Part shown: piece by piece, positions 26,174 through 33,361 of the stretch
Position numbering within the stretch: the stretch's first letter is position 1
Layout of the letters: each line of letters starts with the position of its first letter
Source of the DNA: Escherichia phage fKMPT1
Length of the DNA: 64,000 nucleotides
Reading direction: 5' to 3' (one strand)
Sequence record: PP620640
Notes under the pieces: generated by a model
The model's database searches: none
Told to the model about the DNA's origin: nothing
The model's input: the letters and a program-made list of their open reading frames with translations, nothing else
Program-made: the position numbers and the translations under genes

Positions 26174-26503
26174 TTAATCTGCCAGCCTTAAATTAAAATT
26201 AACACCAAATTTTTCGCATACTTCCAACATATACTCAAGCGAGACATTACCAGTGAGGTGGATTATGTTGGATACGCGAGCCTGAGAGATACCACAAATT
26301 TTAGCAACTTGCTCTTGAGAAAGACCTCTGGATTTAATCTCTCTCTTAAAACGATGTGCAACGAAGTCTCTCATTTCGTCTACATCCATTGGACAAATAT
26401 AACTCTCCATTTCAGCCTCTCTGTCAACCTCCCAATCATCTTGTGGAGCATAAGGGTCAAAAGTCTCATTCATCTTTCTTCTTCCGTTTGCGTGAAGTGT
26501 CAA
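26174..26503 (-). CDS. Helix-turn-helix (XRE-like) DNA-binding protein
   Basis: 109 aa; C-terminal region LSQEQVAKICGISQARVSNIIH typical HTH. Confidence 0.55.
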   Translation of the reverse strand: MTLHANGRRKMNETFDPYAPQDDWEVDREAEMESYICPMDVDEMRDFVAHRFKREIKSRGLSQEQVAKICGISQARVSNIIHLTGNVSLEYMLEVCEKFGVNFNLRLAD

Positions 26504-26679: not shown

Positions 26680-27063
26680 TCAAATACCTGTGCAGCTTCT
26701 GTTTTCTAAGAAATACTCAACACCATACATAGCTTTTTGCATCAAATCTTCTTTAAACTGGATGCGATGGTTGAGCATAGCCTGTACATCAATATCATCA
26801 TGGTGCTTTTCTTTAATATTTGCAGATTGCAGGAAATACTCTCCAAGAACACGATACTGGTAGTCAGTTACCTTATCAGTCATCTCTGTCAAAGACTCTT
26901 CAGAGATTGGTTTAAGTAGCTCACCTTTAGATAGCGCAACACCTTTTACAATCTGGCAAGTGTCTTCTGGAACACCTGATAAGTCCACATTTGGAAGTTC
27001 TGTTGCATTGACTGGTAAATTCATTGCCATAACCATTGCAGCAGCTAATAAAATCTTTTTCAT
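26680..27063 (-). CDS. Secreted/periplasmic small protein
   Basis: 127 aa; N-terminal signal peptide MKKILLAAAMVMAMNLPVNA. Confidence 0.5.
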   Translation of the reverse strand: MKKILLAAAMVMAMNLPVNATELPNVDLSGVPEDTCQIVKGVALSKGELLKPISEESLTEMTDKVTDYQYRVLGEYFLQSANIKEKHHDDIDVQAMLNHRIQFKEDLMQKAMYGVEYFLENRSCTGI

Positions 27064-27169
27064 AATGACCTCAAAGTTATATTAAATTTTGTATTACATT
27101 GAGTATAAAAATAAGCTATAACACCTGACTTGTCAACAGATTTTATAGCTTATTTGGCAGATTTTTTAT

Positions 27170-27430
27170 AAGGCTACTGCCATCCTTCCATACCACACCA
27201 AACCACACCTTACCTCACACCACCACACCCAACCGAGCCTGACCTTATTAAAAGACCCTCTTAAAGACCTTTTAAAAAGGTAAGTCTCATTTTAATGTAG
27301 TTGAGACTAACTACCCATACTTTACCGGACCTTACTGGACCATACCTAACACCACCGAACCAAACCATACACCACCGAACCGTACCATACCAGACATCAC
27401 TTAAAAACCCTCTTAGAAAGACTCTTAAGT
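27170..27430. repeat. Duplicated G-depleted CA-rich module with conserved TTAAAA(G)ACCCTCTTA box
   Basis: Two ~100-130-bp units (27170-27270 and 27300-27430): plus strand runs of CCA/CAC/ACC almost devoid of G (e.g. ccataccacaccaaaccacaccttacctcacaccaccacaccc; accaccgaacc twice), each ending in ttaaaagaccctcttaaagacc / ttaaaaaccctcttagaaagac. Confidence 0.6.
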
Positions 27431-27648
27431 GATGCTGGTGAGTACCCGTTGGTTTATGCTGCTCAGTATACTCACCAAATTTTCTATGTCAACAACTTTT
27501 ATAAAAAAGTTCTGATAGCTATATGCGTCACGAAACAAAAGATTGTAAACAAGACACCCATTGCAAAAGATGTGTCCAAAAGCTTACTTGCAACGTATGA
27601 CAATACAAAGACAACCAGTATAAACAAAATGACTGTACTGAACATAGT

Positions 27649-28749
27649 TTACTCATAATCCCTAATAACTAGCCCAACAGGAAACTGTAAAGACCCCTTA
27701 CGAGTCATCTTCTGGAACTGAACCGTTAAAGGTTTCCCGATAAACTCTTCAGGATGCTCAGCAAGATACTGTTTCTTCTCATGAGTAGTCTTCCATGAGA
27801 CATCTACAAAGACGTTAGGAAGCGTCTCTACAACGAACTTGCCATGACCACGTTTATCGGTCTTTACACCAGTTACTTTAAACTCTTCAGTGTGCATCTT
27901 CTTGTGCTTAATCAAGAAGTATGAACGGTGACAACACTCATAGAAGGAGTCTTCAGAAATTGAACGGTACATTGCACCTTCAAACTTAGCTTCAACCCAC
28001 TTATCATGGGCTTCATCAAACTCTTCCCAAGAGTTAACACGACGAGATTTAACAGGGACAACTTTACAGCCATCTCTAAAGTCATTCAATGGTGAAGTCT
28101 CAATAATATCTCTACGCTCAGGCCACGTCTTAGTACTGTCACAGATATCATACCAGTAGAACTGGAGTAGATGTCGGTCTGGATTGTCAGCATTCTTAAT
28201 CATAGACACAATGTCTTCTAAGTCCCAACCATGAGCATAAATCTCGCCATCAAAGTCTTTAACTTGCGGATGTAATTTAAGCAACAAAAGTAAATCTGGG
28301 ATTAGTTCTGCTGGAACGTTGTAAACAGTATTCTCACGAGAATAAGCCGTGAAGCTAACTGAATCAGCATCTCTTGAAATTCTACAACGAACACCATCAA
28401 GTTTTGGTTGAGCATCAGCAGGGAATATCAAATACTTTGCATGACTAACCTTTGCAGCATCATGCGCAAGCTGTACACCTACCTTCTCAGTATTCTGTGC
28501 AGACTCTTTTGTGTAAGCATAACCTTTGCGGTCAACCTGCTTTTTATACTTAGCAGCAACTTCAAAGAGAGCTTGCTGTTCAGCGTTACGCTCATTCTTT
28601 TTACCGATGTTTTTAGGTTCTGCTGTATACTCTTCAAACATCATCTTGCCATTCTCTTTACCGTAGGTTGTAATAACTTTGTCGCCTACAGCAACACATG
28701 ACCAGACGTTGAAGGAGCCATCTTTATTTTGTTTGTATAGAATTGTCAT
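27649..28749 (-). CDS. ATP-dependent DNA ligase
   Basis: 366 aa; adenylation motif I KLDGVRC (KxDG); size as T7-type ligases. Confidence 0.8.
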   Translation of the reverse strand: MTILYKQNKDGSFNVWSCVAVGDKVITTYGKENGKMMFEEYTAEPKNIGKKNERNAEQQALFEVAAKYKKQVDRKGYAYTKESAQNTEKVGVQLAHDAAKVSHAKYLIFPADAQPKLDGVRCRISRDADSVSFTAYSRENTVYNVPAELIPDLLLLLKLHPQVKDFDGEIYAHGWDLEDIVSMIKNADNPDRHLLQFYWYDICDSTKTWPERRDIIETSPLNDFRDGCKVVPVKSRRVNSWEEFDEAHDKWVEAKFEGAMYRSISEDSFYECCHRSYFLIKHKKMHTEEFKVTGVKTDKRGHGKFVVETLPNVFVDVSWKTTHEKKQYLAEHPEEFIGKPLTVQFQKMTRKGSLQFPVGLVIRDYE

Positions 28750-28952
28750 TTTCTCTTACCACCAATTTCTACGTCAATAACTTGAATATCACCAGCATCA
28801 TCAAACTTGTGAATGATGCTTTTCACAGTGTAAGTCCAACCCTCGATGCGAACCAATTCACCTTCTCGTGGAACTATTGGGTTACGTTGAGCTACCGTTG
28901 TAGTGGAGTGAACAACATCATAACAATAGATATAGTTTACTAGGACTTCCAT
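28746..28952 (-). CDS. Hypothetical small protein
   Basis: 68-aa ORF coupled to ligase start. Confidence 0.35.
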   Translation of the reverse strand: MEVLVNYIYCYDVVHSTTTVAQRNPIVPREGELVRIEGWTYTVKSIIHKFDDAGDIQVIDVEIGGKRK

Positions 28953-28961
28953 GCCTTTTCC

Positions 28962-29195
28962 TTAAAATGATAAGTCAATATTGATACGTTCACCCTTAAG
29001 GACTCCTGTACGGTCCCTTGCAATCTTACCGTCAACAATAAGGATATGCGCAGACCTTAAAGATTCACTATTAAAACCTTTTACGAACTTACTAGGCATA
29101 ACTACAATAAGCATCTCTTGAATCAACTCTGGAGTGTAGCAGTTGTCGTGAAGTTGCTGAATAACGTCTGCAAGTGTCATTTTTGATGTCTCCAA
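28962..29195 (-). CDS. Small protein, paralog 1 of a two-member family
   Basis: 77 aa; alignable over full length with 29383..29601 product (shared ...DGKIA(R/K)D(R/K)TG.LKGER(I/V)NI...). Confidence 0.45.
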   Translation of the reverse strand: METSKMTLADVIQQLHDNCYTPELIQEMLIVVMPSKFVKGFNSESLRSAHILIVDGKIARDRTGVLKGERINIDLSF

Positions 29196-29652: not shown

Positions 29653-30156
29653 TCAAGATAGTTTTGCAAACTCTCCGTGGAGTTTTATAGCAGCTTCACA
29701 GTAAGCTTTATGGGCTTCTTCAGGTGTATCAAATAGACCAAGTGATGACCTTTTACCTCTGCATGTTATAGTCGCCCTCCACTTATTGCAGTCTTTAAAG
29801 TAATGAACACCCTTGTAACCTGATTTGTTAGTCGTCTGCTTTACCCTGTTTTGAGCGTTTCCATATTTATCGGTCTCCCTAAGATTAGAAATGTGATTAT
29901 TACTCCTGTTGCCATCAATGTGGTCTATCATCTTAGTAGGTTTGTAACCATGCTCAAACCACCAAACAAGGTGATGCACTTTTATTACAACATCTTTGAA
30001 TTTAAGCACTTTGTAACCATAAGCATCACTTCCTCCGGCAACCTGACCAGCTTTAGCTTGTCTATTCCTATCATACCTGTTGTAGAAGACCCCTTTATCG
30101 GGGTCGTAAATAAAGTTGTCCTTGTAATCTTGAAGTGTTAGTGAACGGCGTACCAT
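29653..30156 (-). CDS. HNH homing endonuclease with AP2-type DNA-binding domain
   Basis: 167 aa; HNH_3-like motif MIDHIDGNRSNNHISNLRETDKYGNAQNR and AP2-like SGYKGVHYFKDCNKWRATI...LGLFDTPEEAHKAY; immediately downstream of intron-containing polymerase gene. Confidence 0.75.
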   Translation of the reverse strand: MVRRSLTLQDYKDNFIYDPDKGVFYNRYDRNRQAKAGQVAGGSDAYGYKVLKFKDVVIKVHHLVWWFEHGYKPTKMIDHIDGNRSNNHISNLRETDKYGNAQNRVKQTTNKSGYKGVHYFKDCNKWRATITCRGKRSSLGLFDTPEEAHKAYCEAAIKLHGEFAKLS

Positions 30157-30689
30157 GTTTTACCTACCTTACCAGTACCCGTGACAAGTGTCTTACTCTT
30201 TAATCCAAGATTTTTTGATGCTTGACCATACATTCTATCAATAATCTCCTTAACATCTGGTACAGCTTTTGTTGGAACCTCTAAAGAAACTTCGTCGTGG
30301 TAACTACAGACCCATCTAGCACCAATAGCTGGTTTCCTACCATTTAGAACTGTAAGTTTTCGCTCTGTTAACTCTCTATTAGCCAAGTTAATCCCCTCAT
30401 TCTGTACCTGCGCCTCACTACCCATGAGTGTGAAATTCAATAACTTATGTGGAGATTTACACCATAACCACGCTCCAGCGACTTTGATATAACCACCTTT
30501 GGCAATTGCAGAAGTTTTTCCAAAAACCTCTTCAAGTGCTTTCTTAGTTGCTTTGAAGTCTTCCTCTAACCTATCAAGCAGCTTTTTAATCTTAGGTAGA
30601 CGTACAAAGTAAGTTTGTTTAGTCAATGCACCTTCTTCCGTAGATGATGCCTTGATAGTTTTTGCAAACTTCTCGTCTCCAGCACCGAA
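30138..30689 (-). CDS. DNA polymerase, family A (T7-like), exon 2 (5' boundary approximate)
   Basis: Contains FGAGDEKFA (second half of motif B, cf. T7 YGAGDEK) and motif C YHDEV; no in-frame ATG or RBS at its 5' end, stop codon 4 codons upstream. Confidence 0.65.
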   Translation of the reverse strand, partial: FGAGDEKFAKTIKASSTEEGALTKQTYFVRLPKIKKLLDRLEEDFKATKKALEEVFGKTSAIAKGGYIKVAGAWLWCKSPHKLLNFTLMGSEAQVQNEGINLANRELTERKLTVLNGRKPAIGARWVCSYHDEVSLEVPTKAVPDVKEIIDRMYGQASKNLGLKSKTLVTGTGKVGKTWYAVH

Positions 30690-30965
30690 CAATACATCTG
30701 GTCAATACACTCGCAAGGTGTACCAGTTCTCTTATGAACTTCTCCGCATTTCTACGGAGTGTCGGACTATATCACGTAGCAGGATGCTACCGTTGCACTT
30801 GGGAATGGTCATTAGCTTACCACCCTACTCTACTCAGTTCATACGTTAAGTATGCTTTTCGATAGTCTCTGAACGTTCCTCTCAAGAGGCTTCGCTGCTG
30901 ATTACCGTATCTTCTCAGACTTAGGCTTCCAGCAATTCACAACGTTTTACATGCGCCACTGACGC
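30690..30965 (-). mobile_element. Group I self-splicing intron (ORF-less) in DNA polymerase gene; boundaries approximate
   Basis: On minus strand, in order: P-like gaattgctggaagcc (~30924-30938), Q-like aatcagcagcg (~30893-30903), R-like gttcagagactat (~30862-30874), S-like gatatagtccgac (~30761-30773) giving P7 GACTAT/ATAGTC; P9-like hairpin ctccgtagaaatgcggag; possible P1 pairing exon tttaT with intron Gtaaa; interrupts motif B of polymerase. Confidence 0.75.
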
Positions 30966-33104
30966 ATAAATGCCATTTTTGGCTTTCTTACGACCTTTTG
31001 TAATCTCGTGGAGAAGTTCCTCATCCTGTGTATACCTACAACGAACAATATCTTCTTCCTTGTTCAGACCAAAGTAAATACTGTTCAGTGTATGTGCATC
31101 AGTACCTGTGTATACTTCATAGAGGTCATTCTCAGCATCATAACGAAGGTACTTGTCAGTTTCTGGATTGAGGTACTTATCAAGATGCTTGCAATAGTAT
31201 CTTCCATCCTCTTGCTTGGTAAATTCTACTGACTCTTTACCTTGTGTTACCGCTTTAGTGAACTCTTCATCACCCATAAAGTTACAAAGAAGAACTAGCT
31301 GTGCTGAGTTTTGGTCTACAGAGATGATATCTGTCCCCTCTTCACAAGTCCACACCTCCCTCATAGGTGCTCCATAGACAGCAGCACCAGACGGTACGTT
31401 TACAATACCATATTGTGTCATACGTCCAGTTGAAGTACCAAATACCATTGCACCAGCACTAAGGCGACCATCAGGACGAATCTGGTTCAACCAACCTTTT
31501 TCATCATCCTTTGAGTTCTCAATAGTTCTGCGTCGGTGCATCAAAGTATAGTACTTAGCAATCTTCTGTCCAAGCTCACCTTCAATCGTATCATAAGATG
31601 ATTCAGTAAGTTTTGGTGAAGTACGGATTAAGCAAGGTTCAAGCAAATCTGTGTATTTCTTCACAGACCAGTTATGTTCAATGTACTGGACACCTTCATG
31701 TTCAACATAACTCAAACCACACCTTTCAACCATCTCATCCCACTTAGGATGCTTTGTAATCATCTTTTTGTTGTCTTTGAAACGACAAACTTTGACAGGA
31801 CGACCATCTGAGTCTTTCTTGTAGTTCCAGTCATCTGGAATCCAACCAACTGATTTCAAATAGTCTTTCACAACTGCTACCTGAGTCATACGAGAAACTT
31901 CGAACTCAATTGGTGTATATGGTGCATCAATCAAACCTGTGTAGCGACTTGACTCAAGCTCAAAGTGGTTAACAACATGGCTGTTATAGTACTTCACAGT
32001 TTTAACTGTTTTTACTGGCTTCCAATCTTTGCACTTCTTACCAATCTTTGCATTCAACTCATTGCAAATTGCACGAGCATCCTTCATTGCTACAAAACCT
32101 TCCTTGTACTCTTCACCAGTTACAGAGTTGGTTGGTGTATAGCAATTCCGCTTTTCAATGTTAAAAATCTTTGTAGTTGGCTTACCAAATGGCTTGATTT
32201 CATATGTCTGCATCTCACCGTTACGTACCTGCTGACGATACTTTGTCTTAGGGTACTTGGTAATTCTCTTCAGTCCATCTGCGTGACCAAATGCTTCAAC
32301 ATACTCATTCCAAGCTTTTGCAAACTCTTCTCCAGTGACTTTAACTTTGGTCTTGATAGTTGGAGGAAGATGTGGTTCAACTTCTGAAGCAAGCTCATTA
32401 GTCAACTTGTCAAGTTCCTTTACATGGAACTCCATAAGCTCTTTATCAGCTTTCCAACCATTGATAGCTTGTTGACTCATCCAGAAAGATGTTTCTTTAG
32501 CTCGCATGTAGGTTTCATAAGTATCTACGCCACACTTCTTCAGCTTGAGATATTCATTATCCAGTGCACGTTTAGTTTTGGCGTTAATACGGATATCTTC
32601 TACAACACGAGTGAAGATTTCTGCATTCCACACACCCCAATGTTCAATCTCTGGTTTACGTACACCGACACGAGCACCCCATGCAGCCAAGCCATGAGCA
32701 CCTTTATAGCCTTTTGGAGTTGGTCTATCCATCCATTGAACACGAGATTGGATAAGAGAATCCTGAAAGAAATTACTCCACGGCTTACACTTTGGATTAT
32801 CAAAGTTCCACAAATCAGGTGCAATGTGATTGAAAACCCACCAGTCATACCCCAGACCATTATGGATGCAAAGTCGTTTTGCCTTTAACGCAAACTCAAC
32901 ACCTTCACGCAAGCCACCCTTAATGTACTTGGTATACTTGTGACCGAGGATAGGCTCATCTGTAAAGACCCATACAGGTGGCTCTTCATCGTCAGATTTA
33001 TAGTCTGCGAAAGCCATTACGTGTACTTTAGTGAACTCAAGGAGTAAACCATCAGTTTCTGTATCGCCAACTAAATGTAAGTTTTTAAAATCTACGTTTT
33101 CCAT
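30966..33104 (-). CDS. DNA polymerase, family A (T7-like), exon 1 (3' boundary approximate)
   Basis: 3'-5' exonuclease Exo I motif VGDTETDGL; motif A-like DQNSAQLVL; ends in RKKAKNGIY (first half of motif B); likely true start at second in-frame ATG (MENVD) preceded by GAGGGAG RBS. Confidence 0.75.
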
Positions 33105-33361
33105 TTTTACTCCCTCTAAAATCATTAACCACATACATTACTGCAAAAAATTATAAAAAGCAAGTTGACAATGTACTTGACAAGGTGTTAATCTTTGCGA
33201 AGTGGGTTTTTACTTAAAAGGTTACTTAACAGTTTAACTATACAGATACTTTAAAACTCTTAAAAGATTATTTAATAGTTTTTAAAAAGCTTTAAAGTAT
33301 AACGTATAGAATACGTTAAGATAAAAGATTAAAACTTAATAGTTACTTAAAAGAGGCTTAC

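Follow-up and report, generated by a model that had tools for sequence, protein, structure and literature searches.

A putative orphan VIPR locus with two tandem vrRNA genes in a Felix O1-like phage

Introduction

What does a long intergenic stretch with hardly any G on one strand do beside the ligase gene of a phage? The question is raised by the gap at positions 27064-27498 of the DNA analyzed here, a stretch of 64,000 nucleotides presented as Escherichia phage fKMPT1 (sequence record PP620640) and referred to below as the window. A first-pass annotation, made from the letters alone, had found no plausible open reading frame (ORF) in the gap, which our analysis bears out, and had offered an iteron-like replication origin, a structured or protein-sponging RNA, and a packaging or recombination site as candidate roles. 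Our findings indicate that the region very probably consists of two vrRNA genes on the minus strand, belonging to the SUSP1-clade type (II) of the Viral Interference Programmable Repeat (VIPR) system, in a genome where the partner protein Vipr was not found. Whole-genome searches were run on OR711204.1 (Salmonella phage fBSPA4, 87,179 bp, a Felix O1-like myovirus), of which the window represents the first 64 kb, so that coordinates in the window and the record coincide. The two sequences differ at four single bases (3764, 14498, 25926, and 56637), all distant from the element.

VIPR systems were described in mid-2026 in two bioRxiv preprints (10.64898/2026.04.26.720920 and 10.64898/2026.04.26.720927), which present RNA-guided DNA recognition with a non-contiguous code, in a system proposed to be ancestral to CRISPR effectors. 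The components are Vipr, a phage-encoded RAMP-like protein of ~20 kDa; an accessory gene, vap; and vrRNAs, which are ~100 nt long when mature and carry 9-16 YNNGG repeats with a conserved GGY and hypervariable NN bases, followed by an invariable 3' tail of ~40 nt that forms a hairpin and a pseudoknot in the SUSP1 clade (10.64898/2026.04.26.720920). Genes for vrRNAs lie in the intergenic spaces on either side of vipr, which is usually accompanied by vap (10.64898/2026.04.26.720920). Vipr polymerizes along the repeat tract as a helical filament, with one protomer per repeat, and forms an R-loop triplex on its target (10.64898/2026.04.26.720927); according to the two preprints, each GGY is flipped out and held by the protein, which stacks the NN dinucleotides. 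These NN bases read double-stranded DNA with one base skipped per repeat, usually the codon wobble position, and transcription in the competing phage or satellite is silenced. A satellite phage and prophages are the natural targets, a target being accepted at an NN match of at least 80% under the one-base-skip rule; SUSP1-clade targets were found in the E. coli pangenome, and some satellites carry vrRNAs of their own (10.64898/2026.04.26.720920).

In the same preprint, the SUSP1 clade was defined by BLASTp of Vipr and comprises 13 loci with 41 vrRNAs. Because that survey is keyed on Vipr, loci without the protein fall outside it, and its text mentions neither Felix O1 nor orphan vrRNAs. As for the literature on repeats in Felixounavirus, the PhageMaP paper alone surfaced, and it is silent on this locus.

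A five-nucleotide periodicity on the minus strand

All genes surrounding the element are on the minus strand, and the region was read as its reverse complement. The strand asymmetry reported in the first pass is real, with a plus-strand GC skew of -0.6 to -0.8 in two stretches, and it proved to be a strict 5-nt periodicity of GG on the minus strand. At 27394-27315 and at 27247-27188, ten successive pentamers include 8-9 with the dinucleotide in phase, against a background maximum of 4 of 10, both in the 64-kb window and on the plus strand of the whole 87-kb genome. Across the minus strand of that genome, only these two arrays reach at least 5 of 10. The periodicity is far beyond chance.

Each array forms the central part of a module composed of a head hairpin, a tract of YNNGG pentamers, and a 32-nt tail, and two such modules follow one another in tandem on the minus strand. 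The two-unit organization noticed earlier was thus confirmed, as were the two occurrences of caccaccgaacc. For comparison, we gathered 101 copies of the module from GenBank loci and IMG/VR contigs, of which 84 are distinct when array and tail are taken together. Their tracts range from 8 to 19 pentamers, and the profile of 1053 pentamers from the 84 unique arrays consists of Y (T.88, C.11), two N positions with 1.92 and 1.91 bits, and two G positions (.81 and.97). Between phages whose flanks are ~93% identical, the NN bases and the number of repeats are wholly different, yet the phase is unbroken. From the sequence, the expected sizes are ~112 nt for vrRNA-1 and 87-92 nt for vrRNA-2, whose possible first unit, UAAGG, closes the head hairpin.

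Variation in tract length, together with hypervariability among close relatives, might also be expected of a neutral pentanucleotide microsatellite in the 3' untranslated region of the ligase operon. This explanation retains next to no probability, since the phase is held over 55-80 nt without indels, the arrays occur at one locus per genome only, and fixed structures flank them; conservation of GGY beside free NN bases is position-specific and already contradicts it. The element also has its own promoter, which is at odds with reading it as the 3' untranslated region of the ligase operon, the fallback named in the first-pass annotation.

Other ways of accounting for the repeats were tried and rejected. 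A small ORF running through the array is excluded by the 5-nt period and the variable length. For mimicry of the RecBCD Chi site, GGTGGTG does occur in the arrays, but the octamer is not in phase, and for T7-type primase sites the base following GGT is not fixed. No tRNA or tmRNA was found in the region.

Covarying tails and head hairpins

A conserved structured tail, missed in the first pass, follows each repeat tract. Across the collected modules, the tail measures 32 nt and exists in four sequence versions that all fit a single ungapped frame. Two helices are laid out in it as follows: the 5' arm of S1, 2 bases, the 5' arm of S2, 1-3 bases, the 3' arm of S1, an A-rich linker, and the 3' arm of S2. 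The S1 helix appears as GTAG/CTAC, GTGG/CCAC, or AAGG/CCTT, and S2 as AGTCTCA/TGAGACT, AATCGGA/T(C/T)CGATT, GGTAG/CTACC, or GGCAG/CTGCC; in type Z, both helices have sequences unlike those of types X and Y and retain their complementarity. Among 31 distinct tails, 93% of the cells are paired, compared with 28-40% in slid controls. Both sides have changed in 3 of the 4 S1 pairs and in 6 of the 7 S2 pairs, and one pair goes from G-C through G-U to A-U. The interleaving has the topology of an H-type pseudoknot, in which the two helices may form together.

The head hairpins come in two versions, A and B, whose stems differ in sequence and are each complementary (A, CATCACTTAA/TTAAGTGATG; B, ACCTTTTTAAAAG/CTTTTAAT(A/G)AGGT). 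Their common apex, G(A)GUCUU(U)..AAGAGGGU, is the box ttaaaa(g)accctctta that had been described as the end of each unit. The box does occur twice, with exact matches of TAAGAGGGT at 27255 and 27407 only. Its interpretation changes: it is the apex and stem of a ~19-bp hairpin located upstream of the tract in the RNA sense, and not a unit end or a free-standing motif. The type-B head, whose 3' arm extends into the first repeat of vrRNA-2, is a hairpin conserved in 33 variants. The head hairpins are near-perfect ~19-bp duplexes between consecutive vrRNAs, similar in this respect to phage RNase III processing sites, and by this analogy they may be RNase III-like processing sites that set the vrRNA ends. 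The accessible text of the VIPR preprint 10.64898/2026.04.26.720920 contains no description of them.

These structures bear directly on whether the repeats act as DNA, as they would in an iteron- or R-loop-type origin or in a packaging or recombination site. Like plasmid and phage iterons, they are intergenic tandem direct repeats near replication genes, in a DNA-metabolism gene block; moreover, a G-rich non-template strand begins immediately downstream of a strong promoter, and the variation in module number (1-5) shows that modules recombine with one another. A role as DNA is nonetheless highly improbable. The helices covary through G-U pairs that are possible on the minus strand only (in the heads they become A-C mismatches when read on the plus strand), hence they are RNA of one strand. 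An iteron-type origin has several direct repeats of 17-22 bp beside an AT-rich unwinding element and a cognate initiator gene; here, the unit is 5 nt in the RNA sense, no repeats of 17-22 bp exist, and neither a Rep-type gene nor another initiator gene is adjacent, the neighbors being the ligase, a 48-aa ORF, and a 127-aa protein. NN bases that are hypervariable between ~93% identical phages would be intolerable for a fixed DNA-binding site, and the homologous SUSP1 arrays are small RNAs found experimentally to be bound by Vipr (10.64898/2026.04.26.720920). The cumulative GC skew merely tracks gene orientation, and an R-loop origin, suggested by the pentameric repeats of switch regions, was rejected for the same reason. 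We found no support for packaging or recombination as the function of the site.

Homology to the VIPR locus of phage SUSP1

Small RNA sequencing of SUSP1 revealed one vrRNA upstream and three downstream of vipr-vap, co-purifying with Vipr (10.64898/2026.04.26.720920). The array detector used in this study returns exactly these four positions in the SUSP1 genome, with 12, 15, 14, and 11 repeats and with tails of types Y, X, X, and Z. Between the Z tail of the window and that of the last SUSP1 vrRNA there is no difference, and a single unpaired position separates the X1 tail from the X tail of SUSP1. The two loci also share the gene order td, frd, ..., 127-aa gene, modules, ligase, and the 195-aa protein of the cassette in phage tootiki shares 97.9% identity with the protein encoded at 28474-29061 of SUSP1.

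Taken feature by feature, the window modules agree with the published description of a vrRNA in their YNNGG repeats with conserved GGY (16 and 11-12 repeats, where 9-16 are described) and in the hairpin-plus-pseudoknot layout, supported by covariation in both tails. They also have the X and Z tails of the SUSP1 clade and its arrangement of strand and promoter, and like the SUSP1 modules they lie between the ligase gene and the 127-aa gene. The differences are equally clear: vrRNAs are expected to flank a vipr gene, which is the case in syntenic relatives and not in fBSPA4; the window has two modules where SUSP1 has one plus three; and the window guides are unique, with no target found in the scans made. 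By homology, we therefore classify both RNAs as vrRNA genes; the locus we regard as an apparently incomplete (orphan) VIPR locus. The RNA role suggested in the first pass stands insofar as the element would be a G/U-rich, structured minus-strand RNA whose repeats are protein-bound in related phages; the plus strand, from which that suggestion was read, is the wrong one.

Promoters and genomic setting

The positions of all features are collected in Table 1. The first-pass annotation placed the promoter of the downstream operon outside the element, and this promoter, P2, is located there at 27136-27108. It marks a boundary and is not part of a vrRNA. The inverted repeat aagctata/tatagctt reported beside it is present as well, inside a conserved 13-bp inverted repeat (AAATAAGCTATAA..TTATAGCTTATTT, 27109-27155) that brackets the -35 box of P2, a promoter invariant across loci. 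The promoter overlooked earlier, P1, is kept in all Felix-like loci inspected, has no ORF between it and the repeats, and carries its -10 box within another conserved inverted repeat, GGTGAGTAC..GTACTCACC (27440-27478). Judging from the promoter motif, both RNAs would be transcribed from P1. The inverted repeats at P1 and P2 could serve as operators, perhaps ones bound by the Cro/CI-type regulator encoded nearby.

Table 1. Features of the element and of the genes around it (window coordinates).
Feature	Position	Strand	Details
DNA polymerase and several small genes		-	Upstream of the ligase in gene order
Ligase gene	27649-28749	-
48-aa ORF	27499-27645	-	Hydrophobic, membrane-like (MFSTVILFILVVFVLSYVASKLL...); between ligase and P1; no GenBank annotation
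Intergenic gap	27064-27498		435 nt; between the 48-aa ORF and the 127-aa gene
Promoter P1 (putative)	27492-27465	-	TTGACA-16-TATACT; consensus scan 11/12; directly upstream of first module
Type-A head hairpin	27395-27434	-	CATCACTTAA..TTAAGTGATG stem, apex GAGUCUUUCUAAGAGGGUU; RNAfold 14+5 bp; second box of the first pass
vrRNA-1 guide tract	27315-27394	-	16 YNNGG repeats; NN = CT AT AC TC GG AT TT TC GG TA AT CC AA CC AA (AT)
vrRNA-1 3' tail, type X1	27283-27314	-	S1 GUAG/CUAC interleaved with S2 AGUCUCA/UGAGACU; A-rich linker AUUAAAA
Type-B head hairpin	27242-27281	-	ACCUUUUUAAAAG..CUUUUAAUAAGGU, apex GUCUUUAAGAGGGU; RNAfold ~19 bp; first box of the first pass
vrRNA-2 guide tract	27188-27247	-	11 repeats (12 with possible first unit UAAGG); NN = (AA) CA TC TG GT GG GA AA GT TT GT (AT)
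vrRNA-2 3' tail, type Z	27156-27187	-	S1 AAGG/CCUU interleaved with S2 GGCAG/CUGCC; linker AUAAAAAAU
Promoter P2 (putative)	27108-27155	-	Downstream operon; -35 at 27136-27131; scan 10/12
127-aa gene	26680-27063	-	Secreted-type protein
Cro/CI-type regulator	26174-26473	-	Followed by frd and td further along the minus strand

Some observations concern the neighborhood itself. At the position of the 48-aa ORF, phage Moogle has a diverged, likewise hydrophobic ORF. In the single-module phages phiWec172, EC6, RPN213, P219, and DE17, the end of the ligase gene abuts P1, which leaves no space for this ORF. Farther away, a group I intron (Rfam, 59.9 bits, E=1e-12) at 30742-31024 on the minus strand divides the DNA polymerase gene into two annotated pieces; the ORFs around it are 30138-30692, 30921-33125, and 29653-30156, with an HNH endonuclease ORF directly downstream. 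The polymerase gene of SUSP1 is uninterrupted.

Distribution of the modules and absence of vipr and vap

A tblastn search of the whole fBSPA4 genome for vipr and vap gave nothing better than E=0.26. Similarly, a family hidden Markov model built from 118 Vipr homologues reached a best value of 0.65 among the six-frame ORFs of fBSPA4, whereas the SUSP1 Vipr used as a control scored 1.7e-84. The Vipr family is represented by proteins of ~190 aa, with 520 of them at E <=0.001, and none of the 120 homologues listed among these 520 carries a Pfam domain. Homologues with 22-50% identity are encoded by Gordonia, Mycobacterium, Pseudomonas, Vibrio, and Listonella phages and by many metagenomic contigs.

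The first-pass annotation took absence from related phages as a sign of a mere 3' untranslated region, and the opposite was found: modules are present in 230-258 phage records, mostly of Felixounavirus, Mooglevirus, and Suspvirus. In the phage collection, a Vipr of at least 90% identity is encoded in 118 records, compared with 258 that have the locus, which suggests that about half of the Felix-like phages are Vipr-less. Within the clade, Vipr is 97-99% identical. The modules number 1-5 per phage and always occupy this one locus. Phages with 3-5 modules carry two genes of 195 and 146 aa between the modules, followed by a strong intrinsic terminator, and the window, Felix O1, and others lack both genes and have 1-2 modules left. 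Among the fetched loci, 21 have vipr beside the modules and 19 of these also have vap; the two without vap end within or just past vipr.

In the window, the first module combines an A head and an X tail and the second a B head and a Z tail, as if a first-type module had been fused to a last-type one. Such a fusion would result if the vipr-vap cassette had been lost through recombination between repeated modules, either at the B heads of the full locus or at the tails. A comparable case is humlepung, where the guide of the first orphan module recurs in the first module of tootiki, a Vipr-carrying phage.

Two records deserve a separate comment. GU169904.1 (“Staphylococcus phage SA1,” 147 kb) is probably a chimeric or misassigned assembly; the VIPR locus in it is Felix O1-like and encodes a Vipr that is 99.5% identical. 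LR597663.1 (Escherichia phage VpaE1_ev78) has a Felix O1-type single orphan module and no vipr-vap; its name alone, as the record states no origin, suggests descent from the Vipr-carrying phage VpaE1. If this relationship is true, recombination can exchange the locus within the time span of laboratory work.

Target searches for the two guides of the window

The guides were decoded by the published one-base-skip rule, with the near-constant last unit dropped, which gives CTnATnACnTCnGGnATnTTnTCnGGnTAnATnCCnAAnCCnAA for vrRNA-1 and CAnTCnTGnGTnGGnGAnAAnGTnTTnGT for vrRNA-2. Both are essentially private to this phage: among 50,697 phage records, the vrRNA-2 array is unique and the vrRNA-1 array nearly so, having eight units in common with the fourth module of Moogle.

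No self-target exists in the whole fBSPA4 genome, where the best matches (21/32 for vrRNA-1 and 16/24 for vrRNA-2) are noise, and neither guide has a target in the SUSP1 genome or in any of the fetched loci. Three scans of IMG/VR with exact 10-unit patterns and scans of GTDB representative genomes with 10-unit and 9-unit patterns were also without result, as was a tblastn search of phage GenBank records with the decoded vrRNA-1 peptides. In JGI metagenomes, the vrRNA-1 guide had one 25/32 match, which we judged to be due to chance; it falls in a gut contig, where the sequence is repetitive and non-coding. When 8-unit patterns were combined with local extension, a few sites reached an NN match of 80-90%, with unforced positions no better than chance. 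A guide common to several Vipr-carrying phages likewise found nothing in a 10-unit scan of IMG/VR; thus, the satellite target of the clade is probably absent from that collection.

Several points weigh against the assignment of the region to VIPR. The defining partner is missing, as no Vipr is encoded in cis, and neither guide has a target in the collections scanned, although this negative result is weak: the scans demand exact runs of 8-10 units, and Salmonella and E. coli pangenomes lie outside their coverage. Four of the 16 repeats of vrRNA-1 deviate from GG, a degeneracy similar to that of the working vrRNAs of SUSP1. In addition, the transcription, processing, and Vipr binding of these two RNAs are predicted, and the mechanism itself is known from two preprints with peer review pending (10.64898/2026.04.26.720920 and 10.64898/2026.04.26.720927).

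Orphan guides of related phages that match vipr

When 81 decoded guides were run against the vipr-vap cassettes, all guides that matched at 80% or more came from Vipr-less, single-module phages, while the guides of Vipr-carrying phages stayed at or below 77%, the noise level. Two types of guide stand out. The Felix O1-type guide, ATnACnAAnGAnGAnCT(n)CT/TTnATnGTnCT, matches vipr codons 157-166 (ITKEELLMVL), and its DE17 allele agrees with SUSP1 vipr at 20/20 positions. The EC6-type guide, AGnGTnTCnGCnTGnCTnAGnAA, matches codons 14-21 (FLSHADTL) on the other strand at 16/16 positions, over a stretch that takes in H17, the residue that contacts the first G (10.64898/2026.04.26.720927). The matched sites in SUSP1 vipr are 28565-28593 and 29000-29022, and the Felix O1/FO1a module is located at 2603-2657 of its fetched locus. 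An RPN213-type guide was rejected as vipr-targeting and not counted, with 18/22 on one cassette and noise on SUSP1.

The matches have the properties that the published rule would demand. Both sites are in codon phase 0, where the skipped base is the wobble position, and skip lengths of 0, 2, and 3 give noise. Guide alleles track vipr alleles, AG occurring with AGA and TT with TTG, and in the variants of the Felix O1-type guide, drift affects the GGY positions and spares the NN bases. This type of array is found in 47 records, including Felix O1 itself, and the four largest of these genomes are all without the cassette. Because a 5-nt-periodic guide can match a 3-nt-periodic target only via the code, shared ancestry does not explain the correspondence, and the vipr-matching orphan guides constitute a natural, independent confirmation of the one-base-skip code. 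This pattern argues for the use of at least some orphan vrRNAs in trans, with a competitor's own Vipr against the gene that encodes it.

Present role of the orphan modules

If the two window RNAs act at all, they would be made from P1 and act only with a near-identical Vipr supplied by a co-infecting relative. The simplest competing view is that they are inert remnants, vrRNA genes by descent that were left behind by a recent deletion of vipr-vap, possibly transcribed and roleless. We give this view close to an even chance. It agrees with the lack of Vipr in the genome and of a target in the scans made, with the identity of the first-module guides of humlepung and tootiki, which fits a recent and simple deletion, and with the near uniqueness of both window arrays, which bear no sign of conservation as guides; the modules may persist because the deletion is recent or because read-through from P1 aids the downstream genes. 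Inertness is harder to reconcile with heads, tails, repeat phase, and P1 that are all intact, with Vipr-less loci that make up about half of the Felix-like records and keep 1-2 well-formed modules, or with the single-module orphans of the 47 records, which match vipr and hold their NN bases as GGY drifts.

A present role of the window vrRNAs as trans-acting guides is a tentative proposal to which we accord a minority share of our confidence, and a role as a decoy for the Vipr of a competitor is clearly unlikely. For the orphan vrRNAs of Vipr-less Felix O1-like phages in general, the idea that they are RNA-only weapons, loading onto the Vipr of a relative and redirecting it, is possible but rather doubtful. 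Under this idea, single-module phages (Felix O1, EC6, and ~47 records) would aim their guide at the vipr gene of the competitor, so that its system shuts itself off. The window guides would by the same logic be aimed at targets yet unsampled, with a Salmonella satellite, a prophage, and a rival phage as candidates.

Comparison with other systems

The repeats also invite comparison with a well-known protein-binding array. The TRAP site in the Bacillus trp leader consists of 11 (G/U)AG triplets spaced by 2-3 nt. The window tracts resemble it as period-5 arrays of a conserved triplet bound by an oligomeric protein with one subunit per repeat; they differ in that TRAP is a closed ring acting in attenuation, with uninformative spacers, whereas the filament on a vrRNA is open and helical and its NN bases carry information. 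From this resemblance, and from the likeness of the head apex UCUUUAA to boxA and the capacity of GGN3 repeats to form two-tier G-quadruplexes, one might regard the element as a host-factor sponge or a translation or termination element unrelated to VIPR. The probability of such an element is very small: relatives have a dedicated, co-located protein that accounts for these exact modules, the code between guide and target is validated by perfect natural matches, and the region has no Rfam match even at E <=10 beyond three chance-level ones of 15-21 bits, with nothing at gathering score. A sponge for anti-Shine-Dalgarno sequences or tRNA CCA ends, a boxA/boxC antiterminator, and two-tetrad G-quadruplexes were each considered and then dropped.

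A CRISPR array in the strict sense was also rejected, since the unit is 5 nt and does not correspond to repeats of ~23-47 nt with spacers of similar length; the longer repeats in the region are the heads and tails, present twice each. Virus-borne mini-CRISPR arrays were reportedly described by Medvedeva et al. in 2019. Like these and like orphan CRISPR arrays that rely on Cas proteins supplied in trans, the window element comprises guide-RNA genes without an effector, carried by a virus and plausibly directed at conflict between close relatives. Unlike them, it has no repeat-spacer architecture or contiguous spacer, its specificity is spread over the NN bases, and its effector would come from a co-infecting phage and not from the host. 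RNA anti-CRISPRs (Racr), which Camara-Wilpert et al. are said to have reported in 2023, are solitary repeat units that titrate Cas proteins. The likeness lies in a non-coding RNA that equals or mimics the guide scaffold and could divert the effector of a competitor, and the difference is that the window RNAs are no bare handles but complete guides that include variable regions.

Significance

The kind of element found in the window is already known from the 2026 preprints, and the orphan configuration is its unexplored part. In the Felix O1 group, guide-RNA genes are far more widespread than Vipr, and surveys that start from the protein miss such loci. Strong arguments for use in trans come from the Felix O1 and EC6 guides, which match vipr. 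If orphan guides do work in this way, they would add a layer to phage-phage conflict in which guides parasitize the effector of a rival.

Felix O1-type phages serve in Salmonella typing and in biocontrol, often as members of cocktails. Interference between cocktail members through VIPR or orphan guides would bear on the design of such cocktails.

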